Shown piece by piece: positions 4,597 to 59,428 of a stretch of DNA of 64,000 nucleotides. Positions within the stretch are counted from its first letter, which is position 1. Every line of letters starts with the position of its first letter. The DNA lies in contig JAAXWF010000002.1 in the NCBI GenBank assembly GCA_013335095.1, forward strand, positions 80,516 to 144,515, read 5' to 3'. Both the position numbers and the translations under genes were made by a program. The notes beneath the pieces are model-generated. The model had not been told where the DNA came from. It did no database searches and saw only the letters and a program-made list of their open reading frames with translations. This DNA is from a candidate division WWE3 bacterium. GTDB lineage: Bacteria; Patescibacteriota; 4484-211; GCA-002791395.

Positions 4597-5631
4597 ATGC
4601 CTTATCAAAACAGAACATTACAGAATGAACGACTTACGTTTCTTTTTTCAATTGTTGGAATCCTCTCATTTTTGAGTCTCGCAACCGCTGCGCCAATAAC
4701 TTCGTCAAATAATATTTTTAATATGTTGTTTCCAAAAACTTCGGCAGATGCAAAGTCGTCAAATAATCTTAGTGCATTTTTTAGTACAAAAAATATTAAT
4801 GATGTAGCAAATGAAGATGGGCAAACACTATCAATTCCACAAGTTATTCAAGATGTGTCTTGGATTGGTTCGGGTGATACAGTGGATGATTCGTATGCTG
4901 GATTTATATTTCACCGCAAGGGATTACCGCTAAACGCATCGATTCAATCAGCATTTCTGGTATTAAAATCATCCGAAACAAATTCGACGCCCATCTCGGT
5001 AGATATATATGCTGAATCAGACAAACAGCCAGAACAATTCTCTTCTTCAAGTAAGCCGTCAGATCGGATTATAGGAACAGATGTAATAACGTATACAACC
5101 ACAAAAACATGGCGGAAGGATGAGGTTGTACTTATTAATGTAACACAAGTAATTGATCAAGCACTCACTGCCAATCCCGAGTTGCAGTCAATCTCCCTGA
5201 TAATGAAAAATACTTCTTCAGTAGCAAAACAGAGGCGGTTCTTTTATGGAAAATCAAACACGATAAAGTCACCTCGACTATTCGTTAGATACAGAATGAA
5301 TGACGTACGCACCGATAGTAATGTCACAATTCCGCCATCTTCAACGAAATTGCCGACAAGGATCCCAACCTCAATTAACATAACACCGACTCCTTATCCG
5401 ACCATAACATCAGCACAACCCATTACTGCTATACCGACACAAAGACTAAACAACTGTATTATTACTGGTTGTAGCGGGCAAATTTGTAGCGATCAAGAGA
5501 TGTATACAACATGTGAGTACAAGGACGAATATGCGTGCTATAGAAATGCGAAATGTGAACGTCAATCAAACGGGAAATGTGGCTGGACGATGGATAATAG
5601 TCTAAGTCAATGTCTCAGTTCGACACGGTAA
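4597..5631 (+). CDS. secreted hypothetical protein: signal-anchor, Thr/Pro-rich linker, C-terminal 10-Cys module
   Basis: Hydrophobic N-terminus (LTFLFSIVGILSFLSLATAAP). It is followed by 'LFPKTSADAK', a variant of the FPKKESSA motif shared with two other proteins here. There is a PT-rich linker (PTRIPTSINITPTPYPTITSAQPITAIPT) and a Cys-rich C-terminus (CIITGCSGQICSD…CEYKDEYACYRNAKCERQSNGKCGW). Confidence 0.5.
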   Translation: MPYQNRTLQNERLTFLFSIVGILSFLSLATAAPITSSNNIFNMLFPKTSADAKSSNNLSAFFSTKNINDVANEDGQTLSIPQVIQDVSWIGSGDTVDDSYAGFIFHRKGLPLNASIQSAFLVLKSSETNSTPISVDIYAESDKQPEQFSSSSKPSDRIIGTDVITYTTTKTWRKDEVVLINVTQVIDQALTANPELQSISLIMKNTSSVAKQRRFFYGKSNTIKSPRLFVRYRMNDVRTDSNVTIPPSSTKLPTRIPTSINITPTPYPTITSAQPITAIPTQRLNNCIITGCSGQICSDQEMYTTCEYKDEYACYRNAKCERQSNGKCGWTMDNSLSQCLSSTR

Positions 5632-5648
5632 TTAATGAATAACGATCA

Positions 5649-8579
5649 ATGAAGAATAGTAATACAAATAAAAACTATTTAGCTGTTATTGTTGTAGCAA
5701 CGGTATTAATGGTAACTTCAATTATAGGAATATCAACATATTATCCACCAACTAAAGGCTCCCTTTCTACTATATTTCCCAAAAAAGAATCTTCGGCACA
5801 AACCGGAACTCTTCAGGTTAGCAACAACTTAATCCTGAATCAAAATAACGAACGTTTTATCTTTAAAGGCGTCAATTTGGAATTTTACCGAGACATGAAT
5901 GTCAGTAATGTAACGTATACCGGTTGGGAAAAAAGAAATCAGATTGTTTCAAAACTAAAATCACTAGGAATAAATGCCGTACGTGTGAACTATAGATCAG
6001 ACAGTATCAAATCGACGGCAAATGGACATACAGAGAACGGAAACATCTCTCAGCTACTTGATATGCTAAAACTCTTTTCTGATAATGGTATTTATGTTAT
6101 GCCGAGTGACCACATCTTTACCGGCAATGACATAGCAAATAAAGAGAATCTTTCATTCCCAAATTTCAAGAAAGTAATTGATGATTCACGAGCTCGGGGA
6201 TATGAACACATGCTAATAATGAATCCTTACAATGAACCATATAATAACGAAAACTGGTCTGCATGGGCAAGCGAAAATAAATCTACGTTAGATTACTTGC
6301 GGTCAACGCTTCAGTTTAAGGGTCTTATAATCTTAGACAATCCATTATGGGCAGGAGCTATAAACGTAGACCAAGCAAAACAACTCCTAGCATATGACAA
6401 AACGTTACTTGGTGGCTCTACCGAATTAGCCTTTTCAAATCATTATTATCCCAATTGGGGATTAGATGGACCCAATCAAGTGATGACATCAGCAAAGTCA
6501 ATCCCTTTAATTTTAGGAGAGCTCGGCCAATGGTCTTCACAAGGATCTAATCCCAACTATGTAATATCAGTACTCGATTTACTGGTTAAGACAGGCATTC
6601 CAAATGGTCATAATGGTTTGTTCCCATGGATCTGGAATTGGAGTGATGCAAATACGATGACGAGTTCAGATCAGCTAACATTAAATAGTCATGGAGACTT
6701 ATTTGTTAATAACTATTATTCCAAAATTGTATCTAATTCGAATACTCCCGTTCCGTCTGCTGTAATAAATCCGACATCAACGCCAGTCACCGGAAACCAA
6801 TTATCCAATATCCCCTCAACAATATTAAATGGACTTCGTGAAGGTGGGGTAAATCTTGTATTTGGTTGGTGGGATCCACATGGATATGCTCCGACGGAAT
6901 TCGACGATGATCTACCAATAATAAAAGCAAAAGGTGGAGGACATATCAGACTACCTGTAAGTTCTGACTTAATTGAGGAAGGTACAACTGGTAAGGTAAA
7001 GGAAAGCACTTGGCAAGAATTAAAAACATTTATCGAAAAAGCAAAGAGCAATGGCTTAGTCACAGTAATTGATTTGCATCACCTCGGCGTATTTTCTTTA
7101 GATTACTATCAAGGGAAGTCAACTGATACAAGCTGGACTGATTTTATGGATAAAATAAGATACACAGATTGGGCAGCCCGACATATATCATTATCTGAGG
7201 ACATTGCGAAACATATTAACAGAGATTTAGATAAAAGTTGGGTTGTTTTTCAACCTGCAAATGAACCAATATTTACCGGAAACAATGAACCGCAGATTTG
7301 GTATAACCACCAAAATAAACTAATACCTGCAATTCGTCGCGGTTGCAGCGACTGCACTATCTTTATCATGTCGCACTCCTGGCAAAGCATTGGTGCAACC
7401 GTAGATAATATGAACTTCTCTCAAATGCAATGGTGGGACAATAAGATGATCATTGACATGCATTACTATTCACCACTAGACCTAACGCATTGTGGATATA
7501 CTTCGAGTACGAATAATTGTGCTGGAAAACAATGGCCGGGAACATATACAGGTTGGACGACATTCGGTACTGAACATAACGGCACATGGGATAAAACATT
7601 TCTTGAAAGAGAATTTAAGCGGGTGTGGGATTATCAACAGAAAAACCCTGGTGTAGTAGTGCATTTTAGCGAGATAGGAACTCACTCGGGGCTAGAAGAT
7701 ATAACTCGATCTGCATATCTACGCGATGTGACATCAATACTAAGCGCCAATGGAGTTGGCTGGTCATGCTGGGAGTGGGATAAGAACTTTGGAATCATTA
7801 ATCATCCCAAAACGATTGAAGCATGTTTAGGTACAACCGGAATGTCGGTATCGCCATATCCAACATCGCAAGCTTCAATCACACCTACTCCGACATTACA
7901 TGTAAGCAATTCACCGACCCCGTCAACAACGCTTGCTCCAACTCAAACTCCTAGTGCTGGTTTTTATAGAGGAATCAATCTTGGTGGTACAGATATAGCA
8001 ATTAACGGAAACACCTGGTCTGGTGAAGCTACTGCTAATATAAGCGCACTTGGAACGTCAAAGTCAAACCAGTGGTTGAATTTAAATCCATCTGCTGACG
8101 CACAAATGACAAAAATGCTGCAAGACTGGCAAGAGCACTGGAATCATGAGATTACTATTAATAATATTGCTCCTGGTAAATATCGTTTATATGTTTATGG
8201 AGTAATGGATTGGAATGATTCAAATGCACAAACAATTACAAGCTATGTAAATAATCAGAGAATAGGAGAGTGGAAACCAGCTACGAGTGGATCATGGGTT
8301 AAGATGGGACCATGGGATGGGTTAATAACTAATGGAACGGCAACGATTACGACTAGTGCAACTAATAACAAACTTGCTGGAATAGAGATTTATCGTCTTT
8401 TAAGAGCTGATATAAATAACGATGGGATTGTTAACATTTTTGATCTTGGATTACTTTCAGTACATTATGGCGAGCAGTTAACAACATCCAGTGACGCTAT
8501 TGTTCGTAACTGCGATATTAATCAAGATAATGTAATTAATGTTTTCGATGTATCAATCCTAATACAAGAATATAAATAG
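5649..8579 (+). CDS. secreted multidomain glycoside hydrolase: two GH5-like (clan GH-A) catalytic domains, a putative carbohydrate-binding beta-sandwich, and a C-terminal type-I-dockerin-like module
   Basis: Signal-anchor (LAVIVVATVLMVTSIIGI). Domain 1: 'FKGVNLEFY…GINAVRVNY…IMNPYNEPYNNENW' (NEP acid/base) and 'ILGELGQWSS' (GExG-type nucleophile context). Domain 2: 'GHIRLPVSSD…VIDLHH…VFQPANEPIFTG…VHFSEIGTHSG'. The C-terminus 'DINNDGIVNIFDLGLLSVHYGE…CDINQDNVINVFDVSILIQEY' has two Ca-binding-loop-like dockerin segments. Confidence 0.75.
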   Translation: MKNSNTNKNYLAVIVVATVLMVTSIIGISTYYPPTKGSLSTIFPKKESSAQTGTLQVSNNLILNQNNERFIFKGVNLEFYRDMNVSNVTYTGWEKRNQIVSKLKSLGINAVRVNYRSDSIKSTANGHTENGNISQLLDMLKLFSDNGIYVMPSDHIFTGNDIANKENLSFPNFKKVIDDSRARGYEHMLIMNPYNEPYNNENWSAWASENKSTLDYLRSTLQFKGLIILDNPLWAGAINVDQAKQLLAYDKTLLGGSTELAFSNHYYPNWGLDGPNQVMTSAKSIPLILGELGQWSSQGSNPNYVISVLDLLVKTGIPNGHNGLFPWIWNWSDANTMTSSDQLTLNSHGDLFVNNYYSKIVSNSNTPVPSAVINPTSTPVTGNQLSNIPSTILNGLREGGVNLVFGWWDPHGYAPTEFDDDLPIIKAKGGGHIRLPVSSDLIEEGTTGKVKESTWQELKTFIEKAKSNGLVTVIDLHHLGVFSLDYYQGKSTDTSWTDFMDKIRYTDWAARHISLSEDIAKHINRDLDKSWVVFQPANEPIFTGNNEPQIWYNHQNKLIPAIRRGCSDCTIFIMSHSWQSIGATVDNMNFSQMQWWDNKMIIDMHYYSPLDLTHCGYTSSTNNCAGKQWPGTYTGWTTFGTEHNGTWDKTFLEREFKRVWDYQQKNPGVVVHFSEIGTHSGLEDITRSAYLRDVTSILSANGVGWSCWEWDKNFGIINHPKTIEACLGTTGMSVSPYPTSQASITPTPTLHVSNSPTPSTTLAPTQTPSAGFYRGINLGGTDIAINGNTWSGEATANISALGTSKSNQWLNLNPSADAQMTKMLQDWQEHWNHEITINNIAPGKYRLYVYGVMDWNDSNAQTITSYVNNQRIGEWKPATSGSWVKMGPWDGLITNGTATITTSATNNKLAGIEIYRLLRADINNDGIVNIFDLGLLSVHYGEQLTTSSDAIVRNCDINQDNVINVFDVSILIQEYK
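8397..8576 (+). other. dockerin type-I-like duplicated Ca2+-binding segment (C-terminus of the GH5 protein)
   Basis: Two copies of D-x-N-x-D-G/N-x-V-N-x-x-D followed by hydrophobic helices (DINNDGIVNIFDLGLL / DINQDNVINVFDVSIL). Confidence 0.6.
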
Positions 8580-38480: not shown

Positions 38481-38510
38481 AAAACCGCCAAAGAAGGCGG
38501 TTTGGCAAAA
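38481..38510. terminator. bidirectional rho-independent terminator between convergent genes
   Basis: A perfect hairpin aaccgcc-aaagaa-ggcggtt (38483-38502) is flanked by A-run upstream and T-containing tract downstream. Read on the - strand it is followed by TTTTTTATT, which is strong for the - gene 38520..39179. Confidence 0.5.
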
Positions 38511-38519
38511 TAACGGCAG

Positions 38520-39179
38520 CTATTTTGCAATTTGGTCGATACGTTGTCTTATTCCTGCAATTCGTCGACTGAGTTGATCACGTCGGCGTCCGAGATCTCG
38601 TGATTCTAACATCAGTTGAAGGCGTTGAGTGTCGATCTCGATACGTTCCTGTAGTAGGGCTTGATAATTAGGTTCGGCATCGGGGCGTTGATCCTGACGT
38701 GATTGCATAAGCGACACGATATGCTCCGGGGATAGAGCAATGATCTCACACGAAGAGACCTGCTGTTTCGTAAGATGATGCTCATAACCTCCTTTGACTG
38801 AATTCCATCGGATCCAGGTATGAGCTCCCACGACTTTGTGCCCCAGACCGAAAAAAGGTTCCCGCCACGAAATCCCAACGCCAACACGCAGCATTATCCG
38901 CTGATAGGCAATAATCAATCGGAATTGGTTGTGCAGATAAGCCGCGCTTCCAAAAGCATGACTCATCTCATGGAGCACAACCGGCCACAACTGCCATTCA
39001 CCCAATACAAGAAAGTCACCGAGATATGTTGGATGTTGGAAGGTAAAAAGCAAAGATCGACGGGCTGATGGCCCAGACAATTTCTGGCTTTCAAATACGA
39101 CCAAGGGCTGTTGCGTGATGTAGGGAATCCGGGCGACGATAGCATGTACGATTTGTGGATCAGACATACGATCCTCCAT
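38520..39179 (-). CDS. HExxH-motif putative zinc metallohydrolase (possibly DUF45/YgjP-like) with C-terminal coiled-coil tail
   Basis: 'VLHEMSHAFGSAAYLHNQF' is H-E-x-x-H plus a third His spaced as in YgjP/DUF45-type metal sites. The C-terminal 60 aa are R/Q/L-rich heptad-like. No TM. Family assignment is tentative. Confidence 0.45.
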   Translation of the reverse strand: MEDRMSDPQIVHAIVARIPYITQQPLVVFESQKLSGPSARRSLLFTFQHPTYLGDFLVLGEWQLWPVVLHEMSHAFGSAAYLHNQFRLIIAYQRIMLRVGVGISWREPFFGLGHKVVGAHTWIRWNSVKGGYEHHLTKQQVSSCEIIALSPEHIVSLMQSRQDQRPDAEPNYQALLQERIEIDTQRLQLMLESRDLGRRRDQLSRRIAGIRQRIDQIAK

Positions 39180-39308
39180 AGATACAATGTGCCAATACGC
39201 TTCGCTGAGTGAATGCTATCAAAGTTTTAAGTTTTTCTCAAATTGAATTGAAAGTAAAAAGAATCAGGAGCCAGCATCCAGCCGGCTCCTGTGATTTATG
39301 CGTACAAA

Positions 39309-40460
39309 CTATTCCGCCGAGACCTCCTCAGCGACTTCTGCTGGCCCCTCGGCCAGGCCGTCCTCAGCCTCCGTTTCTGCGGGCTGCGCCACGGCAGCCT
39401 TGCCCGGAGCCTCCATCGCTCCGACGCAGTCACGAAGAAGTTGGATGGCCGGATCCAGTCGAATCTTGGTGCGAAGATCAGGCCGGTCCTGGGGGATCGG
39501 CGATGTCCTACTGCCATTCAGCAGATGTGGTACGTATGGATTCCCCCCCTTGGTCGGAGTGACCAAGTGAGCAAACCACACACCAACCATCTGCAGCGCC
39601 TCGGCCTCCTCGTCGGTCAGATCCTGACCCCGCAGCCGAGCTTCGGTCTTACGAACCGATGCAATGAGCCCCGGAACCTCGCGCAGGTCCCGAATGCCGC
39701 ACGCCAGAATACCAAAGTGCCCCTTGTCGATGACGACACTAAGGGCAACATCGACCTTGGCCTTTGCCGCAGTCCTCCGAAGTGGGCTAGCCAAATTGTC
39801 AGGGGTGACAATCAGACCGATACGCCGACCGTTCGGCAGCACTTCAACCAGAATCAGTGGCTCCGCAGTGTTAGAAGGGCGCTTGATCTGGCTAACGACG
39901 AGCGGACGCACCAGGGCCGCCTGGTTTTGGCGGCGGGTGTTCGCCCGAATTGAATCGACATAGGTGCGAGCGAATTGGAGAACCTCATCATCTGAGGAAT
40001 CCTCCATACCCAAAATCGCCCCAGCCAGAGTCGCCCAGCGGCTATGAAGTTCACCGGTGTCCGATAGGGTGGCCAGGTTCACGACATCCCGGTAGTCGCC
40101 CAGGGGTGACTGAGGATGGGTAAACATATTCCGCGTCAGTCGGTTGAACTTGGCTGCCGCCGACGGGTCTTTCCCATCGTGGTGATCGAGTTTAGAATCA
40201 GGACCACCGCAGTCACAGAACCAATAGGCGACGAAGTTCACCATCGTATAGTATCCATCCGGCCGAGGCCTGATGACTTTACCATTCGACAGACGGTACT
40301 CCGTACCCTGCGGAATAAGCCGAAGCTCGATCGGCCCCTCAAATCGGAGCTGCTCACGAATGAAGTCCTGAGCCATCAGCATAGTGATGATGGCATCGGC
40401 ATCTCTGTGCCCCAAAAGCACGTGACGCTCAATCCTTCCGGCACCATTCACCGGGGGCAT
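39309..40460 (-). CDS. hypothetical protein (383 aa) in a ~60% GC segment; acidic Ala/Glu-rich C-terminal tail
   Basis: Longest ORF in a region where high GC produces many overlapping shadow ORFs on both strands. It has a strong SD (aaggaggg) 4 nt upstream of the ATG at 40460. No family recognised. Confidence 0.5.
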   Translation of the reverse strand: MPPVNGAGRIERHVLLGHRDADAIITMLMAQDFIREQLRFEGPIELRLIPQGTEYRLSNGKVIRPRPDGYYTMVNFVAYWFCDCGGPDSKLDHHDGKDPSAAAKFNRLTRNMFTHPQSPLGDYRDVVNLATLSDTGELHSRWATLAGAILGMEDSSDDEVLQFARTYVDSIRANTRRQNQAALVRPLVVSQIKRPSNTAEPLILVEVLPNGRRIGLIVTPDNLASPLRRTAAKAKVDVALSVVIDKGHFGILACGIRDLREVPGLIASVRKTEARLRGQDLTDEEAEALQMVGVWFAHLVTPTKGGNPYVPHLLNGSRTSPIPQDRPDLRTKIRLDPAIQLLRDCVGAMEAPGKAAVAQPAETEAEDGLAEGPAEVAEEVSAE

Positions 40461-40559
40461 GGCTCCCTCCTTATTGCGTCGTTATCAAGACGCAAACATA
40501 TTGGATGTGCGAAACAGAATAATTATAGCAAAATAATGCAAAGAAATAAACTATAGGAT

Positions 40560-40598
40560 AACAACTATAAACGCCACTGATAATAAACCAGCGGCGTC
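40560..40598 (-). terminator. probable rho-independent terminator downstream of the RRM-protein gene
   Basis: Hairpin acgccactg / cagcggcgt (9 bp with one G·U-compatible position on the - strand transcript), loop ataataaac, followed on the - strand by a T-rich tract ttatagttgtt. Confidence 0.35.
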
Positions 40599-40614
40599 AT
40601 AGTTTGATAGGTTG

Positions 40615-40887
40615 TTACTCACCGTTGTTGTTTTGGTTACGCTCAGGACGAGCTTCATTAACAACCAATGGGCGACCACCAAAATCCTTCTCATGAAACA
40701 TTTGAATAGCTGCTTGAGCAGCTTCTGGAGTTGCCATTTCAACAAACCCAAAACCGCGACTTCTTCCAGTATCACGATCAAGAATAACTTTAGCTGACTT
40801 TACTTCACCAGCTGCTGAAAAAGCTTGCATGAGCTCTTCATCAGTAGTCGAAAACGGCAGATTACCAATATATAGTCGTAAATTCAT
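40615..40887 (-). CDS. RNA-binding protein, single RRM domain (glycine-poor short form)
   Basis: RNP-2 'LYIGNLPF' and RNP-1 'RGFGFVEM' at canonical spacing. Confidence 0.85.
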   Translation of the reverse strand: MNLRLYIGNLPFSTTDEELMQAFSAAGEVKSAKVILDRDTGRSRGFGFVEMATPEAAQAAIQMFHEKDFGGRPLVVNEARPERNQNNNGE

Positions 40888-41147
40888 CGTTGATCACCCC
40901 CTTTCGGGCAGCAATACTCTATCTAAGATTTGAAAAGAAGTCACGGAGAAACCATCGAAAGTAAGGTTAATTACGTCAATCATCGAAACCAAATAACAAC
41001 ACTCTTAAACAATAGTCTTATTATAGCGCACATACATATTTCAATCTAGTCAATCTCAAAAGTGCTCACACATACACAAGAAAAAACAACGCGCGATTAA
41101 AATATTTTAAAAATCATGAAACATTCTTTCGCTTCAGTAATTACACT

Positions 41148-41756
41148 CTACGTGATCAAATTTCTAAATAGATCCAAAAATTTGGGATAATTAATATAGT
41201 AGATAAATCCAGTAAAAAGCATCAACCCGGGGAATATCACCGATTTTTCAAACATACCACCGGCTTTAACTCGTAGAGCTTTAACTGGGGGGAACCCAAA
41301 ATTCCATGGCAAGGGAAAGAGTAGCGGAACGCCTTCCTTGGTAAACGTGTCCATAAAAATATGCGAAACGAGTCCGATCATAAACGCCCACCACACCACA
41401 TTCATATCGACTACTAAAATATGCGCAATAGAACTTAGCAGCCATTGCATACCGATGCCAATAATAACTATTCCGACAATAGAGTGAGCGATCATTCGAT
41501 GTCCTCCAAAGAGTGGACTTAGAATTCTCCCCCAAATACTGCCCGCAGGAATACGCCGCCAGAGGTCAGAGGTGGGTTGATCAAGATCAGGGGCTAACCC
41601 GCCAATAAAATTAGCCGCCAATGAAACCAGCATTGTCGCCATGGTCATTTGAGGAAGGGGAGTATAAGCAGCAACGATGCTTAAGGTCGTAAATGCCGCT
41701 AAATCATGAGTTCGGGCTACCATACCATTTAGTCTAGCATAAATAATACGTGACAA
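41148..41756 (-). CDS. membrane-bound metal-dependent hydrolase, YdjM/DUF457-like
   Basis: Polytopic membrane protein with 'GGHRMIAHS' and 'SHIFMDTFTKEGVPLLFPL', characteristic of the LexA-regulated inner-membrane hydrolase family. Confidence 0.5.
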   Translation of the reverse strand: MSRIIYARLNGMVARTHDLAAFTTLSIVAAYTPLPQMTMATMLVSLAANFIGGLAPDLDQPTSDLWRRIPAGSIWGRILSPLFGGHRMIAHSIVGIVIIGIGMQWLLSSIAHILVVDMNVVWWAFMIGLVSHIFMDTFTKEGVPLLFPLPWNFGFPPVKALRVKAGGMFEKSVIFPGLMLFTGFIYYINYPKFLDLFRNLIT

Positions 41757-41842
41757 AATTTGCTTTTTTAATTGAGGATATCGGTGTTTAAGTGAAAAGT
41801 ACCCCGGACTTATCGCCAGGGGTACAGGGAACTATATTGCTC

Positions 41843-43033
41843 CTACAGGGTTCGAGGACGCATTAATGCGAGCATGGCTTCGTTTCCCTGATGCTCTCTC
41901 CGGCGTTCCTCATCACACTCCTGAGTACGCTGATTGTAAGCAGTAATCGCAATTCGAATTGCATCAAGGGTTGCAACCGCCCAATCTTCAGACAGCATGC
42001 GCTGAGCTGCTGATAGCATCCGTTCGTCATACACGCCGAATCGACTCAGATTGGTAACAGCAATGCTGGATTCGACTAATTGACGACGAATAGATGATAA
42101 CTCAGGACGATCGGCTGCATACAGATAGACCGAAGCAACCGTATGGGTATCGATAAAACGCACCCCATCAGGCCACTCTAGTTCCAGTAGAAACGCGATC
42201 TGTGCCATTATCAGTTCCCAGTCATACCGGGAACCATCAGTACGATCGACCGACCTTTCCAGCGTGTATATAAACCACGGCAAAATGAGTTCATCATCAC
42301 GTGGCAAGATTCCGTTGTAAGACAACTGCTCAACGATCAACTGCTGAACGTGCTGATTTGCCCGAGCCCTCCATTCACGAGGGGTGAGAGGATCAAGCAT
42401 AAGATCCTCAAACGGCCACCACATATCTTCCATCCCGCCATACACGGGTGTGCCCAAATCATATACAAGAAACATCCTCTCGGCTAACTCAGGATTAGCA
42501 CGAGAATGAATGCCTCGTATTATCTGGCTATACCGAATCAATAGCCAACGAGCCCGATCTCCAAATCGCTCGGGATGCTGATGAACCCATCCCGCGAAGA
42601 GCTCAATTAAGACCGCACACCACCCAATCAAACGATCGGGGATTTTGCTGCAGTCAAGCGAGTAATACGTTAAGAGACTTTCCGACGCCCCATATTGGGC
42701 AATGTCCCAATTTACGAAGGGCTGAACGAGATTCAAATCTGGTGCGAGCAATAGTAACAATGCCCGCGCACCAAACCCGACATCATACCGATCTGGCTGA
42801 CTATATAAATCAACCAGGTCGTGTAGGCTACGTGACTTATGCAAAAGCCAGCGGCGCCAAATTGAATGTTGGGTCTTAAGGATCAATTGTTCCTTAAGTG
42901 CATTACGCCAAAGAGCAACAAGCTGCTTATACACAGCGCGATCCCGTTGTGGTAAGACCCATCCCTGAAGAACCAACCGGAAGTCAGTACCCGAATGCAT
43001 GCGAAGCATAGCTCCTCCTTGTCCTAACACCAA
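41843..43033 (-). CDS. hypothetical cytoplasmic protein (396 aa), Trp/Arg-rich, moderately GC-elevated
   Basis: Long uninterrupted ORF with no recognisable motifs; composition differs from neighbouring low-GC genes. Confidence 0.45.
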   Translation of the reverse strand: MVLGQGGAMLRMHSGTDFRLVLQGWVLPQRDRAVYKQLVALWRNALKEQLILKTQHSIWRRWLLHKSRSLHDLVDLYSQPDRYDVGFGARALLLLLAPDLNLVQPFVNWDIAQYGASESLLTYYSLDCSKIPDRLIGWCAVLIELFAGWVHQHPERFGDRARWLLIRYSQIIRGIHSRANPELAERMFLVYDLGTPVYGGMEDMWWPFEDLMLDPLTPREWRARANQHVQQLIVEQLSYNGILPRDDELILPWFIYTLERSVDRTDGSRYDWELIMAQIAFLLELEWPDGVRFIDTHTVASVYLYAADRPELSSIRRQLVESSIAVTNLSRFGVYDERMLSAAQRMLSEDWAVATLDAIRIAITAYNQRTQECDEERRREHQGNEAMLALMRPRTL

Positions 43034-49474: not shown

Positions 49475-50803
49475 ATGATTAAGAGGTATATAATACTAAT
49501 TATTAGTGCGGTTTTATTGTTAGGGGGATTGTATGTACGATGGTCAAACTTGTTTCATGTCGGATTTTACTATGACACTGTAGACTACTTTTATCGATGG
49601 GGTAATACGGCTCGAGAATGGGGATTTGCCAATTTCTGGAAGAATTACACTGGAGAGATGGATTATGTTCCTGGAAGTTTGTACCTATTAACCGGAATAA
49701 GTTTCATCAGTACGTACTTTAAGAATAGTAGTCCAGAAGCGTTTGTAGCAACGTTAAAAATAGTTCTGTTTATAGCCGACATATGTTTATCCTATGTCTT
49801 CTACGTAATTCTTCGACTTTTTGCCAAGACATCAAAACAAGTCGCACTTCTTGTCGCGAGTATCATATTTGTAATACCCCCGCTATGGTTTGTTTCAGGT
49901 GTGATAGGACAGATCGATACGCTCGTTTCACTCTGTGGTATTGCGGGTATCGTATGTTTCTACATTGCTGATACGAGCATACTCTCAAAGCGTGATTACC
50001 GTTTCTGGGCATTGATATCAGGCATCTTAATCGCACTAAGTTTTTGGCTAAAGATGCTCATCATCCTAATTGCACCAGCCGCGTTTGTATTATTCATCAC
50101 GGTTAAAAACAAAAAGGTGCTTGGATACGCCTTATTATCGTTCTTAATTACAACCCTTCTTATTCTAGCGATCCCATTCCAATCAAACCCAACAAGAGTA
50201 ATGAGTACCTTATTAGTTCCTCAGACTCGGTTTAATACCACAACAAATGGAGCGTCTAATTTCTGGGCAGCGATAGGATATTTTGGCGACTCCCGTCACG
50301 TCATCTTTCAAACAAAGAGCATCTCACTTCGTCCCGATAATATTGGGTTAATAATCTATGTAACGACTTCATTGCTGTTGATTGCATTAGCATTACGGTC
50401 GTATATAACGTCAAAGGAAAAAGTAACAATCTCGTTTCATAACTTCTGCTGGATAACATCGGTTACATCATTTGCGTTTTTTTTATTTATGGTGAAAGTA
50501 GCGGCACGATATCTTCATATCACGGCGTTATTTATTATTATTACGATGGTATTAACCAAATCAAGTAAAGAAAAATTTACACTATTGATTTTAACTGCAA
50601 TTCTGGAAGGAACATATTTTCTCAATTTAATCGGAGGTTATACATGGTGGAAATACACCCAACCATTGTGGCCGAGTCTATTATTCCAGTCACTGCATTT
50701 CGATGTAGCAAGAGTTTGTGCTCAGATAAATGTAGCGTTGTTTATTACAGTGCTTGCAATTGGTATAAAACATTTTCTGCAAACTATGCAAACAAATAGA
50801 TAG
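49475..50803 (+). CDS. polytopic membrane protein (~11 TM), possibly a GT-C-type glycosyl/mannosyltransferase-like protein
   Basis: Multi-TM topology with an acidic/aromatic first loop 'YYDTVDYFYRWG' reminiscent of GT-C first-loop DxD/DE motifs. Assignment is weak. Confidence 0.4.
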   Translation: MIKRYIILIISAVLLLGGLYVRWSNLFHVGFYYDTVDYFYRWGNTAREWGFANFWKNYTGEMDYVPGSLYLLTGISFISTYFKNSSPEAFVATLKIVLFIADICLSYVFYVILRLFAKTSKQVALLVASIIFVIPPLWFVSGVIGQIDTLVSLCGIAGIVCFYIADTSILSKRDYRFWALISGILIALSFWLKMLIILIAPAAFVLFITVKNKKVLGYALLSFLITTLLILAIPFQSNPTRVMSTLLVPQTRFNTTTNGASNFWAAIGYFGDSRHVIFQTKSISLRPDNIGLIIYVTTSLLLIALALRSYITSKEKVTISFHNFCWITSVTSFAFFLFMVKVAARYLHITALFIIITMVLTKSSKEKFTLLILTAILEGTYFLNLIGGYTWWKYTQPLWPSLLFQSLHFDVARVCAQINVALFITVLAIGIKHFLQTMQTNR

Positions 50804-50808
50804 TCAAA

Positions 50809-51450
50809 TTACTTTTTTACCGTAGGAGTTGGAGAGGGCACGCTTTGCATAAATGAATTGATGTTTTTCAAAACGTCATCAATAGATCCAGAGGAACTTC
50901 CAACGATAGGGGTCGGGGAGATCGAATTCTTCGTAGAACTTTTTAATGGATATTTTGATGCAAAATAACCTAAATCATACACATCAATCTTTTTATTATC
51001 ATCAAAATCAGCTGCAGTGAACGTTGAATCTGGATTGGCTGATTCGGACTTATCATAATACGAGGCAAATAAGCCAACGTCATAAACATCAATTTCGCCA
51101 TCTCCATCAATATCCCCAGTTCCTTTTAACTCACTTCCAGCATCACCAGATGGTGTCGGAGTTAATGACGCTGCCGAAGATTCTTTTTTAGGAAACAATG
51201 TGTCTAGCTGGGTATTAATGAATGGTGCAACAGCCGCTATGGTTACGGCGAGACCAATCGTCGTTATTGAAATAACCATTGGAATACCAGTAAATTTTAT
51301 TTCACTTAACTTAGAAAAAGTCCGCAAAAATTTTTTATCCTTAGTGGGGTAAATCGGAGCATCATCGAGTGGCTGTGCATTAAAAAGATCAAGGGATTCA
51401 TTATTGGCCTGATTAATCCACAAGCTATTATTTGTATTATTATCCTGCAT
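50809..51450 (-). CDS. small membrane-anchored protein carrying a type-I-dockerin-like module and the FPKKESSA motif
   Basis: TM 'GIPMVISITTIGLAVTIAAVAPFI', then 'DTLFPKKESSAA', then dockerin-like duplicated segments 'DIDGDGEIDVYDVGLFASYY' and 'DFDDNKKIDVYDLGYFASKY' (nt ~50950-51117), with a PT-rich C-tail. Confidence 0.6.
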   Translation of the reverse strand: MQDNNTNNSLWINQANNESLDLFNAQPLDDAPIYPTKDKKFLRTFSKLSEIKFTGIPMVISITTIGLAVTIAAVAPFINTQLDTLFPKKESSAASLTPTPSGDAGSELKGTGDIDGDGEIDVYDVGLFASYYDKSESANPDSTFTAADFDDNKKIDVYDLGYFASKYPLKSSTKNSISPTPIVGSSSGSIDDVLKNINSFMQSVPSPTPTVKK

Positions 51451-51619
51451 AGAATGATCATATTAAGACAATGTTTTACCTTTTTGTCAACGTAATACAA
51501 TCTCCCCAACCAAAAGACCCAATACGTTTTACTATAAGCAGTTCTTTTGATATTATATACCCACGGTTTCAAACCTTTTATGGAAGCCTCAATAGAGGCT
51601 CAAAAGAAAGGACCAGCGT

Positions 51620-52084
51620 ATGCCTGGGATTATCATCCCTCAGGTGGAGCAGATGGACGGCGACGACATTGTCGAGCATTGTCGGGCTGGTGATCTCTTG
51701 GGCGACATCGTCTCGGCAATCGCCCATATGGACCAGGGCGGCTATGGTCCGATTAATTCAGAAATGGGCTGTGGAATCGCCATCAGTGTGATTCCACCGT
51801 TCATTGCTCACAACGTGGAATTGTATCGGGTGTACCGTCTGGTGATGTTCGGGCCAAAACGCAAAATCGGCATCTTAGCCGAATACCAGGCCACCATCGC
51901 TGGCTCGGGCGATAAGCCTGGACCGTTCCCCGGTCTCACCGAGGGTCGGCGGTTCTTCAGTGGTATCAGCCTGGGACTCAGCTCAGGTGTCTCCCTGGAG
52001 ATGGGTGCCGAGCGATTCATGTCAATCGCACACATCGCGAGGGACGCCATCGCCCAGGCATCCCAACGCCTTGGCATTGATTAG
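51620..52084 (+). CDS. hypothetical protein (154 aa) in a short GC-rich (~58%) segment
   Basis: Longest of several overlapping ORFs in a compositional island of about 500 bp; no family recognised. The upstream hairpin agcctc-aata-gaggct (≈51583-51598) may be regulatory. Confidence 0.35.
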   Translation: MPGIIIPQVEQMDGDDIVEHCRAGDLLGDIVSAIAHMDQGGYGPINSEMGCGIAISVIPPFIAHNVELYRVYRLVMFGPKRKIGILAEYQATIAGSGDKPGPFPGLTEGRRFFSGISLGLSSGVSLEMGAERFMSIAHIARDAIAQASQRLGID

Positions 52085-52119
52085 CTAGTGCTTGTCGGCA
52101 TATCTTCCGGGTAACAGAA

Positions 52120-53097
52120 ATGTTACCCGGCTTATTAAATAACTCCAATCTTGACAAAGATCAACCAAACAGCAATAGTAAGTGTATGGAAAATGTGCCG
52201 ATTTCGGACACTCAGCCGCAAACACTTCCTCAAACGAGTCAAGTACCATCACAAACAGTACCATCACAAACAGTACCATCGAAACCAAATGTTTTTAAAT
52301 TCACTTTATGGCTTATACCTGCATTGATTATTATTTTAGTAGTTGGTATCTTTTGGGCATTACAAATATTCAAGCAACAAACAGATATTAAAGACACAAG
52401 CAGTGTCGGTCCCCATATAGCTGAGATAAAACAACGAGGAACCTTATTGATTGGAACAGATGCAACATTTCCTCCAATGGAATACCTTGATGATACCAAT
52501 GTACTGACTGGTTATGATATTGATTTCGGCAATCGAATAGCTGCGGAGCTCGGGGTTACGGCAGAATTTAAAAATATTGTTTGGGACGATTTATTCCTGG
52601 CACTCGAAAATAAAGAGATTGATGTAATAATTTCCAGCGTAACTATTACCGATGAACGAAAAAATCTCTATTCATTTTCAGAACCATATATTAATGCCGG
52701 TCAAGTCATTATTACCCAAAAGACGAATAGCACGATTAGCAGAACAAGTGATCTGAATGGTAAAAAAATCGGAGTACAAAAAGAAACAACCAACGAGCAA
52801 GAAGCAATAAAATATACTCCCGATAAATATGTTGTTCGTTACGATGATTTCCAGGCCGCTACGCAGGCATTGATTGATGGCGCAGTTGATGCAATCTTTT
52901 CTGACTTAACAAATGCCAAAGGAATCGTTAAATCATATCCAGATCTTAAGATTGCAAGTGACCCATTCACCTCTGAGTTCTATGGAATCGTTATGCGTCA
53001 AAATGAAGAAGACCTTGGTACTGAACTAGATCGGGCCGTTGGACTATTACAACAAAGAGGTATTTTGACACTCCTCAAACAAAAGTGGCTCGACTAA
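52120..53097 (+). CDS. solute-binding protein family 3 (amino-acid ABC-type periplasmic binding fold) with N-terminal membrane anchor and P/Q/T-rich linker
   Basis: 'LLIGTDATFPPMEYLDDTNVLTGYDIDFGNRIAAELGV…IDVIISSVTITDERKNLYSFSEPYINAGQVII…KIGVQKETTNEQ…' is the canonical SBP_bac_3 layout. Confidence 0.75.
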   Translation: MLPGLLNNSNLDKDQPNSNSKCMENVPISDTQPQTLPQTSQVPSQTVPSQTVPSKPNVFKFTLWLIPALIIILVVGIFWALQIFKQQTDIKDTSSVGPHIAEIKQRGTLLIGTDATFPPMEYLDDTNVLTGYDIDFGNRIAAELGVTAEFKNIVWDDLFLALENKEIDVIISSVTITDERKNLYSFSEPYINAGQVIITQKTNSTISRTSDLNGKKIGVQKETTNEQEAIKYTPDKYVVRYDDFQAATQALIDGAVDAIFSDLTNAKGIVKSYPDLKIASDPFTSEFYGIVMRQNEEDLGTELDRAVGLLQQRGILTLLKQKWLD

Positions 53098-55730: not shown

Positions 55731-56546
55731 TCATGTCCGTTGACACAAGAATAGCATCTTCATGCCGTGGCCGGTACCAAATGGGGTGCCGTCATAATCA
55801 GACCAGCGATCGATAATCGTAAACCCTGCATCTGCTAGAAGAAGTTCCCATTCAGCCGGGAAGATCATCCGCATCGTTGTTTGGGAGCGATAACACCGAT
55901 TGGCAATAAGCCGGCCAATAGCATCATAAAAGTTGTAGAAGTACGTTACTTCGAGCAACTGTGTCGCAGGATGATAGCGAGTAGTGTAGCTACGTACTAG
56001 ATTATAGCCATCCGCAAGCTGAGCCTCGCGCTCAATGATAGGAGCATGCCGAGTAAGGCCATGGGCTAACTTTGCCGGATCGGGTAAAAACACATCAGCC
56101 ACAAAGTGGCCACCAACCTGCAGATGGTTGTGACAGTTATGTAATGCGGCGCGCTGGTCGTGTGTAGTGAGCAGGTGCGCGAAGCTATGAAACGGGACAA
56201 GGACGAGGTTATATCGCTCGATACCTGCATTGACCGTGCGCATATCACCTTCTATCAACTGCAATTGTGATTGTAGGCTCGGGTCCTCGGCGGCTACTTT
56301 CGCACTTGCCCGAGAAAGCATATCTGGTGATAAATCAACACCAGTGACCCAATACCCAAGCTGCATTGCCTGCCAAGCGATGGGCAAGGTTATACGTCCG
56401 GTTCCGCACGCCATTTCAAGTACATGACCTCCCCGCGCATACATCCGGCAAAGACGTTTACTCCAGGCGATATCCGCTGTTAGATCCGCATATTCCGCAT
56501 CGTAATCAGGCGCATGTCGATAGAAATCGACGACCGAAGTGTCCAT
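55731..56546 (-). CDS. class I SAM-dependent methyltransferase
   Basis: Motif I 'VLEMACGTGRITLPIA' (hh[DE]hGxGxG), motif II region 'YNLVLVPF'. GC is moderately elevated. Confidence 0.7.
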   Translation of the reverse strand: MDTSVVDFYRHAPDYDAEYADLTADIAWSKRLCRMYARGGHVLEMACGTGRITLPIAWQAMQLGYWVTGVDLSPDMLSRASAKVAAEDPSLQSQLQLIEGDMRTVNAGIERYNLVLVPFHSFAHLLTTHDQRAALHNCHNHLQVGGHFVADVFLPDPAKLAHGLTRHAPIIEREAQLADGYNLVRSYTTRYHPATQLLEVTYFYNFYDAIGRLIANRCYRSQTTMRMIFPAEWELLLADAGFTIIDRWSDYDGTPFGTGHGMKMLFLCQRT

Positions 56547-56645
56547 AGGTCCACCTCCATGGATCAGATAAGAAACGTCCGGACTATGCTAGCATACTTA
56601 ACACAGCAACGCAACCCATAGTAAATTTTTATTAATCCGTATGAT

Positions 56646-57155
56646 ATGCTTAAAGCAATGAAGTTTAAAAACTTAAACATGGACTATGCCAGAAGTATCA
56701 CGTTTGGATTCGAAGATGCGTTAGTGTCAACTACTGGAGTTGTAGTTGGAATCGCAGTTGGTACAGCTCAAAGAGATGTGATAATCTTGGCTGGAATTGT
56801 CACCATAGCTGTAGAAGCCCTTTCGATGGGGGCCGGCCAATACCTTAGCGAACGAACAGTACACCAGATGGATGTAAATCACACTCATACCGATAGTTTA
56901 TATCTCGGAGCAATCTTTATGTTTCTTGCCTATATGATTGGTGGAATGGTTCCACTATTTCCGATGTTTGTTATGCCGTTTCCGTCGGCAATCTATGCAA
57001 CAGTTATTTCTGCATTTATTGGACTTTTCCTATTAGGTTATGTAAAAGGAGCGATTATTGGAGTACCTAAGTTAAAAAGTGCTCTTGAGATATTTGTTGT
57101 AGGTGGAATGGCAACCATACTTGGATTAGTTGTCGGGTTATTATTAAAGATTTAA
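56646..57155 (+). CDS. VIT1/CCC1-family (DUF125) membrane protein, putative Fe/Mn transporter
   Basis: 'ITFGFEDALVSTTGVVVGIAVG' (GFxDGLvtt-type motif), 'ALSMGAGQYLS', and 4-5 TM helices. Confidence 0.5.
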   Translation: MLKAMKFKNLNMDYARSITFGFEDALVSTTGVVVGIAVGTAQRDVIILAGIVTIAVEALSMGAGQYLSERTVHQMDVNHTHTDSLYLGAIFMFLAYMIGGMVPLFPMFVMPFPSAIYATVISAFIGLFLLGYVKGAIIGVPKLKSALEIFVVGGMATILGLVVGLLLKI

Positions 57156-57160
57156 AAGTA

Positions 57161-57192
57161 ATAAAAAGCGGGGAGTAGAGTACCCCCCGCCC
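57161..57192 (-). terminator. rho-independent terminator for the flotillin-like gene (between convergent genes)
   Basis: GC hairpin gcgggg-N10-cccccgc (57168-57190). On the - strand it is followed by TTTTTATT (complement of ataaaaa at 57161-57167). Confidence 0.45.
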
Positions 57193-57211
57193 GTCAATCC
57201 CGATAGTATAG

Positions 57212-59269
57212 CTACTTCGCTACAACCGGAATTGTTTGAATGTCGACTGAACGATTTGAGCCGTTTTCGTTCAGATTGAGTCCGAGCAACGACAGAATCC
57301 CTCCAATTGGAATTGAACCAATCAGTTGGAAGTTTGCCCGCTCACGAATCCGATTTATCGCCGAAACGACATCGGTCTCACCCTGCATAAGCTGTTCGAC
57401 CTGCTCCAAGGCATCAGCCAGGCTGAGATTCGAGAATACCCTTGGATCAATCTCACCAAGAACACCCCGTACCCGAGCCATGATCGAGACAAGACTCGAC
57501 CAAAGTTCGGTCGATTCAGGACTACCTCCACTACCAAAAAGATTACCGATTACTGGGATTTCATGCCCAACAACCGAAGCACCTTCGGATAGTGAAAGCA
57601 GCTGATTAATCAGCTGACTCATCTGACCGCCATTACCAAACAGCCTGACGTCCAGCTGAGGAGCCAGAGCTTTGAACGCCTCAAGTCGGGTTTCAGCCTG
57701 TAGCCGTGCCAGTTCGAGCTGAAGCGTATGATCCATACGAATCCGCTCAAGATCGACCAGTACGGGAGCCTCGGCGTATAGAGTAGCCAAGAGCCGCTGA
57801 GCTTCGATACTAGCGGCTTGCCTCGCCCTGTCGATCTCGACCTGGGCAAGACCTTCGGCACGAACGACCTCAACGCGCTTCTGGTCTACCGCGACCTGAG
57901 CTGCAGCAATTTCGGCAGCAGCCAAGCCTGATGCAGCTTCACGTGCTCGAGTTGCATTAGCCTCAACCAACGCAGCCTGTGCGGTGATCGTTGCCGATTC
58001 AGCCTGCGCGCGTGCCTGAGCAAGCTGAGCCTCAGTTTGTGCTCGAGTTGTAATACTCTGAGCCACGGCTTGTGATTCAGCGGCAATCCGCTCTGTTTCG
58101 GCGGCACTACCAGCAGAAATTAGCCGGACTTCTTTCTCACGCTCGGCAGCGGCTAAATCGCGTTGCCGGTCAATTGCAGTCTGCGCAGTTGTAGCTTCGC
58201 TCTGAAGCTGGATTTGAGCTGTTTGAACAGCCCGGTCCTTTTCAGCATCAGCTACGGCGCGACTCCGCGCGAGTTCAATATCTCGAGTCTGCTGAGCTGT
58301 AAGTCGCTCACCATCGAGGGCTATTTGAGCAAGCGCAGCGGAATGCTCACGCTGAGCGACGGTTTGATCACGTTCAACCTGAGCCAGGCGCAACTGGTGA
58401 GTTGCGGCGGCCAATGATTCTCGTTGATCATTCGTTGCCGTCTCAACATCGCGTTGAGTACGAAGCTCTCGCTGTTTAACATCCAGCGTTGTAGCCGTAG
58501 TCAATTCAGACTCACGGCGTGTTCTGGCATTATCGTCCTCAATGCGTGTTAATTCAGCGGCATTGATACCGATGGTCGTCTGAGCAGTAACCTCAGCCGT
58601 CGCTTGTCGAACGATTTGATCGTAGGCGTCACCGGCTAACCGGATTACACGCAAAAACGCCAAATCATAACCAAGCTCGGCCAGAGTCGTATTGACCCGG
58701 TCGGTCGCAACATCACCAAGACGTTGCATATTCGCAATAATCTCGTCGAGGGACATCGAGGCAGCCGCAACAATCAGCTGAGTCGTTGTTTCGGAGATAA
58801 TCGAGTGTACAAGACCCGACACGTCCGTACCGACACGCTGAGCAGCCACCAAGGCCTTTGACGAATCCAATTTAGCTTCGACATGAGCCCAGGCCCTAAA
58901 AGAGACCCGGTGCTTATCGAGGAGCTCAATGCCTCGCTCACCTTCACCAGAAATCTCAACGGTAAAGCTGTATGTTCGAAGCTTTACCACCTGAGCATTG
59001 GCGTTAAGCCAATAGATTGATGGCGCACCAGCGGTCTGACCGAATACGCTGGTTTCTTTACTCGGTGCCCAACTGTGAATCCCGTGGCCTACAACCACAT
59101 GGACTTCATCGGGCCGAACAATTACTCGATTACCAAAGCCAAATATGCGCCAAAATCCGCGCACGCGATCGGCTTCGGTCGAAAGAGAGGCCATAACTTC
59201 GGTGACCGACTGACCACGCCCACCCTGTGACGTATTCACGAATGATGCTCCTTCACTGTACGAATACAC
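57212..59269 (-). CDS. flotillin-like SPFH/band-7 domain protein with long Ala/Glu/Gln-rich coiled-coil
   Basis: N-terminal SPFH fold (…VKLRTYSFTVEISGEGERGIELLDKHRVSFRAWAHVEAKL…MSLDEIIANMQRLGDVATDRVNTTLAELGYDLAFLRVI…). It is followed by ~250 aa of AEAxRExE-type flotillin repeats. Distinctly GC-rich (~55%). Confidence 0.55.
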   Translation of the reverse strand: MYSYSEGASFVNTSQGGRGQSVTEVMASLSTEADRVRGFWRIFGFGNRVIVRPDEVHVVVGHGIHSWAPSKETSVFGQTAGAPSIYWLNANAQVVKLRTYSFTVEISGEGERGIELLDKHRVSFRAWAHVEAKLDSSKALVAAQRVGTDVSGLVHSIISETTTQLIVAAASMSLDEIIANMQRLGDVATDRVNTTLAELGYDLAFLRVIRLAGDAYDQIVRQATAEVTAQTTIGINAAELTRIEDDNARTRRESELTTATTLDVKQRELRTQRDVETATNDQRESLAAATHQLRLAQVERDQTVAQREHSAALAQIALDGERLTAQQTRDIELARSRAVADAEKDRAVQTAQIQLQSEATTAQTAIDRQRDLAAAEREKEVRLISAGSAAETERIAAESQAVAQSITTRAQTEAQLAQARAQAESATITAQAALVEANATRAREAASGLAAAEIAAAQVAVDQKRVEVVRAEGLAQVEIDRARQAASIEAQRLLATLYAEAPVLVDLERIRMDHTLQLELARLQAETRLEAFKALAPQLDVRLFGNGGQMSQLINQLLSLSEGASVVGHEIPVIGNLFGSGGSPESTELWSSLVSIMARVRGVLGEIDPRVFSNLSLADALEQVEQLMQGETDVVSAINRIRERANFQLIGSIPIGGILSLLGLNLNENGSNRSVDIQTIPVVAK

Positions 59270-59428
59270 GCTCCATAACGATTAAGCTCACGTTATGATG
59301 ATGCGATAGGCATCTCCTGATGGATTAATCAACACAGCCGCGATTGGCTATGAAGGTCGTCGCAATTATAATTGAAATAAACCTAATGTCAAAATTTATA
59401 AGATATAGTTAAAAATAGAGTAAAGATA

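Follow-up and report, generated by a model that had tools for sequence, protein, structure and literature searches.

A small protein encoded in a 64,000-nucleotide stretch of a candidate division WWE3 genome (assembly GCA_013335095.1, contig JAAXWF010000002.1, positions 80,516 to 144,515; hereafter the window) possesses a divergent but genuine type-I-like dockerin with both Ca2+ loops intact, and a cohesin is encoded in the same genome. With moderate confidence, this protein, HGA91_03350, is read here as a small exported dockerin protein of a reduced cohesin-dockerin system, in which it would bind the cohesin of HGA91_00355, a protein that itself combines a cohesin and a dockerin (Coh-Doc). 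Cohesin-dockerin docking is the textbook route by which anaerobes assemble multi-enzyme cellulosomes, and is a widely used tool of protein engineering. WWE3 is a candidate phylum, placed within the candidate phyla radiation (CPR; Patescibacteria). The genome, of ~0.9 Mb, consists of two contigs of 358,632 and 536,166 bp, the first carrying HGA91_03350 and the second HGA91_00355.

Dockerin module of HGA91_03350

The initial annotation of the window had described an open reading frame (ORF) of 213 amino acids (aa) with one transmembrane helix and a dockerin-like module. The ORF and the helix were borne out, as a single hydrophobic segment was present at aa 56-79 and the translation was 100% identical to the NCBI entry "hypothetical protein HGA91_03350" of a candidate division WWE3 bacterium. 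The ORF is a real gene, with orthologues (P0002, 57% identical, and P0004, 37%), paralogues (P0003, which is HGA91_03700 of the same genome, and P0005) and conserved neighbours. Full-length relatives were recovered from a representative library of 1.84 billion proteins, including P0002 (E 6e-95), P0004 (E 2e-34) and P0005 (E 5e-28). The P0004 locus (L002) shared with the window the order SBP_bac_3, small dockerin gene, PMT_2-like glycosyltransferase, membrane protein, HAD hydrolase and type IV pilin; ahead of SBP_bac_3 it had a partly called gene where the window has a histidine kinase. No obvious partner gene was found around the paralogue P0003 (locus L001), no NCBIfam model matched HGA91_03350, and a promoter and terminator scan around its gene gave no signal above background.

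The module had been placed at 50950-51117; the duplication stood, while the span was corrected to 50944-51114 (Table 1). Its two 22-residue repeats (aa 113-134 and 148-169) were identical at 12 of 22 positions. Both 12-residue loops had D/N at positions 1, 3, 5, 9 and 12 and were followed by a predicted helix, each repeat continuing with 'V-Y-D-[VL]-G-x-F-A-S-x-Y'. The C-terminus of a GH5 enzyme in the window had been said to carry the same duplicated pattern, and rightly so: HGA91_03350 aligned with the last 79 aa of that enzyme (pairwise E 1e-9), and a six-frame translation of the whole window contained four instances of a loose loop pattern, confined to these two ORFs and arranged as two correctly spaced pairs. 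The loop pairs exceed chance, with a mean of 0.52 single loops and zero pairs in 300 composition-preserving shuffles.

The module was identified as a dockerin because its best Pfam match, the profile search of the PDB, the Dockerin_1 matches of its relatives and the Foldseek search agree. In the single sequence, the best Pfam match was Dockerin_1 (PF00404; E 0.002), and the related modules on the GH5 enzyme (30.1 bits) and on many relatives exceeded the gathering threshold (GA) of this family. A profile built from three family members (alignment A1) retrieved as its top PDB matches the C. thermocellum double dockerin 8X39 (E 4.5e-7), 5LXV_B (5e-5), 5NRK_B (3e-4) and 4FL4 (1.4e-3). In the representative library the same profile matched 711 proteins at E <= 1e-3, nearly all via positions ~105-165, and Pfam scans of 79 sequences, comprising the query and the 78 best relatives from this library, detected Dockerin_1 in 68. 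In the AlphaFold2 (AF2) model of HGA91_03350, aa 110-170 had predicted local distance difference test (pLDDT) scores of 65-77 and contained three helices (122-130, 142-147 and 157-166). The best 18 Foldseek matches of this model in the PDB were all dockerins (target template modelling (TM) scores up to 0.68); the E-values are weak because the domain has only ~55 residues.

The dockerin is the only folded module of HGA91_03350, which ends with a Pro/Thr/Ser linker and a short acidic amphipathic helix (GSIDDVLKNINSFMQS). In the alignments this helix was kept in P0003, P0004 and P0005 and not in P0002, and it corresponds to an AF2 helix at aa 190-202 with low pLDDT. Because most family members retain it, HGA91_03350 amounts to more than a stalked dockerin, and its earlier description as a bare anchor is not established.

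A PMT_2-type glycosyltransferase gene (protein O-mannosyltransferase-like; window 49475-50803, + strand) adjoins the small dockerin gene and is conserved in L002, and a larger PMT/PMT_2 gene plus GtrA lies near the Coh-Doc gene (locus L004, 11629-13785, - strand). Since the dockerin proteins have Pro/Thr/Ser linkers, these linkers may be O-glycosylated.

A cohesin-dockerin protein in the same genome

HGA91_00355 (286 aa; P0010) belongs to a candidate division WWE3 bacterium and shares the HGA91 locus-tag prefix with the window protein; the Logan copies of this protein and of the paralogue HGA91_03700 both came from sample SRR11449211. From its N-terminus it is composed of a helix followed by a motif, a cohesin, a linker and a dockerin. 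Pfam Cohesin matched aa 64-179 with 28.5 bits, above its GA of 24.1, and Dockerin_1 reached 21.8 bits. An AF2 model computed with eight homologues had a mean pLDDT of 81.7, exceeding 90 over most of the cohesin and the dockerin. The best 27 Foldseek matches of this model in the PDB were all cohesins (TM 0.72-0.76), led by CohA2 of C. acetobutylicum (E 3.7e-10). Its dockerin, 'VNVFDVGIFASYYD', closely resembles that of HGA91_03350, 'IDVYDVGLFASYYD'.

This protein was tenth in the A1 profile-search list (E 3.2e-15). The small-protein profile also retrieved three proteins with Pfam Cohesin, and a regular expression for a cohesin strand motif pointed to P0010 and P0018. Together with P0016, these two form a family of 278-338 aa, which from N- to C-terminus possesses a hydrophobic helix with '...L[FY]P[KG]..S/G.A', a cohesin-like domain, a Pro/Thr linker and a dockerin of the 'VNVFDLGI' subtype. 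Coh-Doc proteins recur in relatives (P0016, P0018 and P0187). With regard to cell-surface anchoring of the SLH or sortase kind, the Coh-Doc protein has only the N-terminal helix and a putative cleavage motif.

No cohesin was detected in the window by Pfam scans of the submitted ORFs of at least 150 aa, and no second cohesin was found with a hidden Markov model of the Coh-Doc subfamily over the six-frame ORFs of the window, L001 and L004. These regions amount to ~95 kb of ~0.9 Mb read directly, and the rest of the genome was covered by a word-indexed search. A clostridial cohesin sequence gave no match by phmmer against the retrieved proteins, the query being too distant. By Pfam, the only cohesin protein found in the searched regions has one cohesin, one dockerin and no carbohydrate-binding module (CBM). 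Of the hallmarks of a cellulosome, a multi-cohesin scaffoldin with a CBM was therefore not found there, while dockerin-bearing polysaccharide enzymes were (GH5 in the window, Alginate_lyase/PA14 in L004).

The initial annotation had argued for a dockerin-cohesin-type system as opposed to a stray domain, an argument that depended on a cohesin being encoded somewhere in the genome. Because the same genome encodes HGA91_00355, with a cohesin above GA and a confidently predicted fold, and at least six dockerin proteins, the argument gained support; that HGA91_03350 and HGA91_00355 bind each other is what we infer.

Directly upstream of the HGA91_00355 gene (L004, 9404-9976, + strand) lies the gene of a 190-aa protein with neither cohesin nor dockerin, whose terminal LPNTG and hydrophobic tail identify it as a substrate of sortase. 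At its N-terminus this protein has a four-cysteine domain, of which a nearby 277-aa Dockerin_1 protein (L004, 6807-7640, - strand) contains a paralogous copy, so that the domain is either wall-anchored or dockerin-tagged. In a relative, the Coh-Doc gene of P0018 (locus L005) is flanked by two paralogous proteins of ~195 aa (4566-5150 and 6168-6755, both + strand), each combining a two-cysteine beta-type domain of ~110 aa with a membrane anchor at the C-terminus; P0022 contains two copies of this domain fused to a dockerin. The two-cysteine domain was considered as a cohesin and rejected as evidence for one, as it had no Pfam or PDB sequence match and its profile found no cohesin in the PDB.

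Dockerin proteins of the genome and their subgroups

At least six dockerin proteins are encoded in the genome: the GH5 enzyme, HGA91_03350, HGA91_03700, HGA91_00355, the 277-aa protein and an Alginate_lyase/PA14 protein. The GH5 enzyme had a Pfam Cellulase domain (122.8 bits) in addition to its dockerin. The 277-aa protein had a dockerin of a more canonical type (Dockerin_1, 33.9 bits). The Alginate_lyase/PA14 protein, of 676 aa and encoded in L004, combined these two domains with a dockerin, its C-terminal end being 'DINQDGVTNIFDLGILASFYG...DINQDGSVNVFDLSLLIASYQ'. A 60-aa dockerin alignment searched against an index of 5.8 billion proteins returned only proteins of 63-106 aa, 25 of 29 with PF00404, which does not constitute a genome census.

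Among five of these dockerins, those of HGA91_03350, HGA91_03700 and the Coh-Doc protein shared 43-52% pairwise identity, and those of GH5 and the alginate lyase-PA14 protein (AlgL-PA14) shared 53%. Two subgroups were thus distinguished, a 'structural' one (the two small proteins and Coh-Doc) with 'VDVYDLGxFA' and an 'enzyme' one (GH5 and AlgL-PA14) with 'VN[IV]FDL[GS]xL', the Coh-Doc dockerin being intermediate between them. This division hints at two binding specificities, with one cohesin found.

N-terminal helix and export motif

The helix of HGA91_03350 had a Kyte-Doolittle maximum of 2.17 and corresponds to an AF2 helix at aa 56-85. Basic and acidic residues numbered +6/-2 in its N-terminal flank and +2/-2 in its C-terminal flank; an N-in/C-out topology is therefore predicted, with the C-terminal part outside the cell. 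The helix is followed by a conserved motif, which in the window was restricted to HGA91_03350, the GH5 enzyme ('...STIFPKKESSA') and ORF 4597..5631 directly upstream of GH5 ('AAPITSSNNIFNMLFPKTSADA', with '...MLFPKTSADA'). It was also present in P0002-P0005, and relatives with this motif bear the same dockerin subtype, at either end, on otherwise unrelated proteins, including a deacetylase (P0012), a GDSL esterase (P0031), a beta-helix protein (P0024), a CBM and P0069, P0089 and P0136. P0023 and P0027, with motif and dockerin subtype, are probably alginate-lyase-type proteins. A strict regular expression for the motif matched 15 of 152 proteins (the profile matches plus the query family). In its extended form, a hydrophobic helix, often starting with 'G-x-x-P-I-L-I-L', precedes '[AST]-P-[FIL]-x8-9-[LI]-[FY]-P-K-x2-S-x-A'. 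No Pfam or NCBIfam model matched this N-terminal motif, which may represent a clade-specific signal-peptide class or sorting signal.

The giant LamG proteins encoded in the window have ordinary signal peptides that terminate in '...HPKNADA' and '...TPKSAQA' ('...PK-x-A-x-A'), in both cases followed by 'AWYNSSW' just before DUF2341; 'PK-x2-3-[SA]-x-A' therefore looks like the signal peptidase I c-region of this organism. Cleavage of HGA91_03350 after A93, which would yield a mature form of 120 aa, appears slightly more likely than a permanent anchor. The designation as membrane-anchored in the initial annotation is accordingly doubtful and not established, because the conserved signal-peptidase-like motif comes after the helix.

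ORF 4597..5631 had a C-terminal cluster of eight cysteines, with an NCBIfam heavy_Cys match below the cut-off (E 4e-7) and sub-threshold matches to TIGR04289 and TIGR04292, which are archaeal-type 'heavy_Cys' domains. No Pfam domain was found in this ORF, its middle domain of ~170 aa being unassigned.

Proposed system and alternative explanations

A reduced cellulosome-like docking system in this WWE3 genome is likely from the proteins that it encodes. Its parts would be one Coh-Doc protein (HGA91_00355), the dockerin enzymes GH5 and alginate-lyase/PA14, and the dockerin-only proteins HGA91_03350 and HGA91_03700. HGA91_03350 would be exported by Sec through its N-terminal hydrophobic segment, and its dockerin would fold outside the cell around two Ca2+ and plug, in a Ca2+-dependent manner, into the single cohesin of HGA91_00355. 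There it would compete or alternate with the enzyme dockerins and with the dockerin of the Coh-Doc protein itself, and would occupy or terminate a cohesin site. With its helix uncleaved it would be a membrane tether, and cleavage after A93 would turn it into a soluble cap or adaptor of 120 aa with a C-terminal helix. Because HGA91_00355 also bears a dockerin, it could link head-to-tail or to another receptor.

Several points weigh against this proposal, some of which bear on the identity of the module and some on its partner. Dockerin_1, whose search had been recommended in the initial annotation, was indeed the best Pfam match of HGA91_03350, but its 18.7 bits lie under the GA of 22.9, and the AF2 model, with a mean pLDDT of 52.7, is weak as a whole. 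Generic EF-hand-like or thrombospondin-type Ca2+ repeats with no relation to dockerins, by which a membrane protein would for instance buffer or sense Ca2+, are nevertheless a very improbable explanation. Sub-threshold matches to EF-hand_6 (E 0.014) and EF-hand_7 (E 0.069) and calmodulins at E >= 0.02 in the PDB profile search are consistent with such repeats. Yet these matches were far below their cut-offs (EF-hand_6 15.5 against 25 bits, EF-hand_7 14.0 against 30, EF-hand_1 7.5 against 25.4), and no TSP_3 match was found with Pfam in HGA91_03350 even at E <= 10. In the profile search dockerins, the best Pfam match and the family present in most of the scanned relatives, outranked calmodulins (best E 0.023) by 4-5 orders of magnitude, and calmodulin or troponin followed the 18 dockerins in the Foldseek list only at E > 6 (calmodulin E 6.7). 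At the 12th position the loops have Asp, like dockerins, and not the Glu typical of EF-hands. As to the partner, a single cohesin was found with the coverage given above, and if every component bears a dockerin and each adaptor one cohesin, stoichiometry limits assembly. The dockerins of the small proteins may also target a different receptor, since they group with Coh-Doc and not with the enzyme dockerins. Many non-cellulosomal dockerins are reportedly without a known cohesin partner, and dockerin-only genomes are said to be common, both of which are attributed to Peer et al. in 2009. In a cultivated Saccharibacterium, an essential dockerin-domain protein has been suggested to target host glycans instead (PMC10633639). 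These partner-related points, stoichiometry aside, would fit a dockerin fold with no cohesin role in HGA91_03350, serving as a Ca2+-stabilised adhesion or glycan-binding tag that holds exported proteins to the envelope of the organism itself, a polysaccharide substrate or a host cell surface, with the cohesin reserved for other dockerins or its own. We regard this as somewhat improbable: outside the paralogue P0003, the closest relative of the HGA91_03350 dockerin in the genome sits on the cohesin protein itself, both repeats retain the internal symmetry typical of cohesin-binding dockerins, and carbohydrate binding is not an established dockerin function.

Two further readings concern how HGA91_03350 would act within a docking system. 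It is possible, if doubtful, that it remains an uncleaved type II membrane protein and cell-side anchor, its dockerin holding Coh-Doc adaptors, and thereby other proteins, at the membrane. The long N-terminal cytoplasmic segment (55 aa), unusual for a signal peptide and partly conserved in P0002 and P0004, the strong hydrophobic helix with its positive-inside bias, and the ~14 residues between the helix end and the putative cleavage site, a long distance for signal peptidase I, point in that direction. Cleavage is favoured by the -3/-1 'S-x-A' after 'FPK', kept across many unrelated exported enzymes, by its agreement with what is clearly a cleavage motif in the giant LamG proteins, and by the short n-regions, typical of signal peptides, of the paralogues P0003 and P0005; moreover, a dockerin anchor on a single-cohesin adaptor leaves the enzymes no free cohesin. 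A tentative and rather unlikely extension of the proposal is a stripped-down, self-linking system in WWE3 and related candidate phyla, in which a single Coh-Doc protein able to daisy-chain, dockerin enzymes and dockerin-only caps or tethers, all with the clade-specific export signal 'G-x-x-P-I-L...APF-x8-LFPK-x2-S-x-A', would organise the cell surface or the attachment to substrate or host. In such a self-linking system the split between structural and enzyme dockerins would imply a second receptor not recognisable as a cohesin.

Table 1. Positions of the small dockerin protein, its parts and the associated exported proteins in the window
Feature	Position	Strand	Evidence
Gene of the 213-aa small dockerin protein HGA91_03350	50809..51450	-	ORF and translation, NCBI identity, relatives, synteny
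Single hydrophobic helix, aa 56-79 (signal-peptide h-region or type II anchor)	51214..51285	-	Kyte-Doolittle, charge bias, AF2
Conserved post-helix motif 'APFINTQLDTLFPKKESSA', aa 75-93, with predicted signal peptidase I site after A93	51172..51228	-	motif comparison
Dockerin module, aa 113-169, two 22-residue Ca-loop plus helix repeats	50944..51114	-	Pfam, profile, AF2/Foldseek, shuffles
Dockerin loop 1, D113-I-D-G-D-G-E-I-D-V-Y-D124	51079-51114	-	
Dockerin loop 2, D148-F-D-D-N-K-K-I-D-V-Y-D159	50974-51009	-	
Short acidic amphipathic C-terminal helix, aa 188-203	50842..50889	-	alignments, AF2
GH5 enzyme, 976 aa, with C-terminal dockerin at 8409-8576	5649..8579	+	Pfam, sequence, loop pattern
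Export motif of the GH5 enzyme	5757-5798	+	
344-aa exported protein directly upstream of GH5, without dockerin	4597..5631	+	motif, NCBIfam
Export motif of the 344-aa protein	4690-4752	+	
Motif carriers outside the window: P0002-P0005, P0012, P0023, P0024, P0027, P0031, P0058, P0069, P0085, P0089, P0107, P0111, P0136, P0151			

Other features of the window

Besides the genes above, the window ORFs scanned with Pfam include housekeeping genes and a two-component system. Five tandem giant genes (8614-36130, - strand), encoding 1675-2076 aa each, fill the 27 kb between GH5 and the rest of the window. Each product possesses a signal peptide and some six Laminin_G_3 domains, DUF2341 is present in four of them, and Pfam scans detected neither cohesins nor dockerins in the set. 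Another gene of the window encodes a 739-aa protein (36261-38480, + strand) assigned with 232 bits to the choline/carnitine O-acyltransferase family PF00755, a mainly eukaryotic family that is unexpected in a candidate-phylum bacterium.

A GC-rich island (51600-52100, 55-61% GC against 33-40% in its flanks) separates the small dockerin gene from the substrate-binding protein (SBP) gene, and is absent from the syntenic locus L002. Its 154-aa ORF had no Pfam match and no plasmid match by tblastn, and Rfam found nothing in the window or in the island, for the latter even at E <= 1. RNA folding of the island gave z-scores of -3.95 (plus strand) and -3.61 (minus strand), and a perfect 10-bp hairpin (52105-52131) overlaps the annotated SBP start codon. 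Foreign DNA, an RNA not described so far and chimeric assembly are possible explanations of the island. Two more stretches of raised GC content (47-55%) were located at 38500-43000 and 56000-59300. Their ORFs 38520..39179, 39309..40460, 41843..43033 and 57212..59269 had no Pfam or NCBIfam match, and these stretches may be foreign or mobile DNA or reflect chimerism of the metagenome-assembled genome.

Significance and comparison with known systems

If confirmed, a cohesin and a dockerin family in a WWE3 genome of ~0.9 Mb would mean that even extremely reduced and probably symbiotic bacteria retain the docking principle, which extends there to GH5, a lyase and tiny dockerin-only proteins. The small, enumerable set of partners (one cohesin, five or six dockerins) would allow the role of dockerins in candidate-phyla bacteria to be addressed, and the shared N-terminal motif may aid secretome prediction in these lineages. 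To specialists, a cohesin-dockerin set in WWE3 would come as no great surprise; the unusual features are the syntenic dockerin-only mini-proteins, the single Coh-Doc protein and the shared N-terminal motif.

Type I dockerins of cellulosomes are the best sequence-profile and fold matches of the HGA91_03350 module. Like the clostridial and ruminococcal type I dockerins (PF00404; 1OHZ_B, 2CCL_B, 5LXV_B, 5NRK_B and 8X39), it has two repeats of ~22 residues, each with a Ca loop (D/N at 1, 3, 5, 9 and 12) and then a helix, as well as three predicted helices, Pro/Thr linkers and a counterpart on the GH5 enzyme of the same genome. It differs from the clostridial type in having V/I-F/Y instead of S-T at positions 10-11 and a conserved Gly at position 14 ('D-V-Y/F-D-L-G-x-F-A'). 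The carrier differs as well: HGA91_03350 has 213 aa, lacks both an enzyme domain and a CBM, and is encoded in an ultra-small CPR genome.

Dockerins and cohesins are known outside classical cellulosomes. In Archaeoglobus fulgidus the two can reportedly share one polypeptide, an arrangement that HGA91_00355 resembles. The cohesin-dockerin pair of A. fulgidus is functional outside classical cellulosomes (PMC9705933, as cited in PMC12484212), and in Cellulosilyticum lentocellum a system of one cohesin and one dockerin has been characterised (PMC13487519). Reduced cohesin-dockerin systems can still form functional complexes (PMC13487519; PMC12484212). The WWE3 genome resembles both organisms in its very few cohesins (one found) and in that no multi-cohesin scaffoldin was found. 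It differs from them in having at least six dockerins for one cohesin, syntenic dockerin-only mini-proteins and a clade-specific N-terminal export motif in all members.

Within the literature library searched, no paper was found that links WWE3 or Katanobacteria with dockerin or cohesin, the sole paper with both 'WWE3' and 'dockerin' using the latter term for SR1. Within the Patescibacteria, SR1 has been noted to have a 'dockerin-like protein, cellulosome anchoring protein' and OD1 a 'cellulosome-related cluster' (PMC3812714), and the dockerin-domain protein SEML1_0315 of Southlakia epibionticum is essential (PMC10633639). As in SR1 and for SEML1_0315, the WWE3 dockerins are carried by secreted or envelope proteins that are suspected to act in adhesion or in the handling of polysaccharides. 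Those two reports are at the level of annotation and describe dockerins with no cohesin paired in one genome, unlike the WWE3 genome, where both partners are encoded together.

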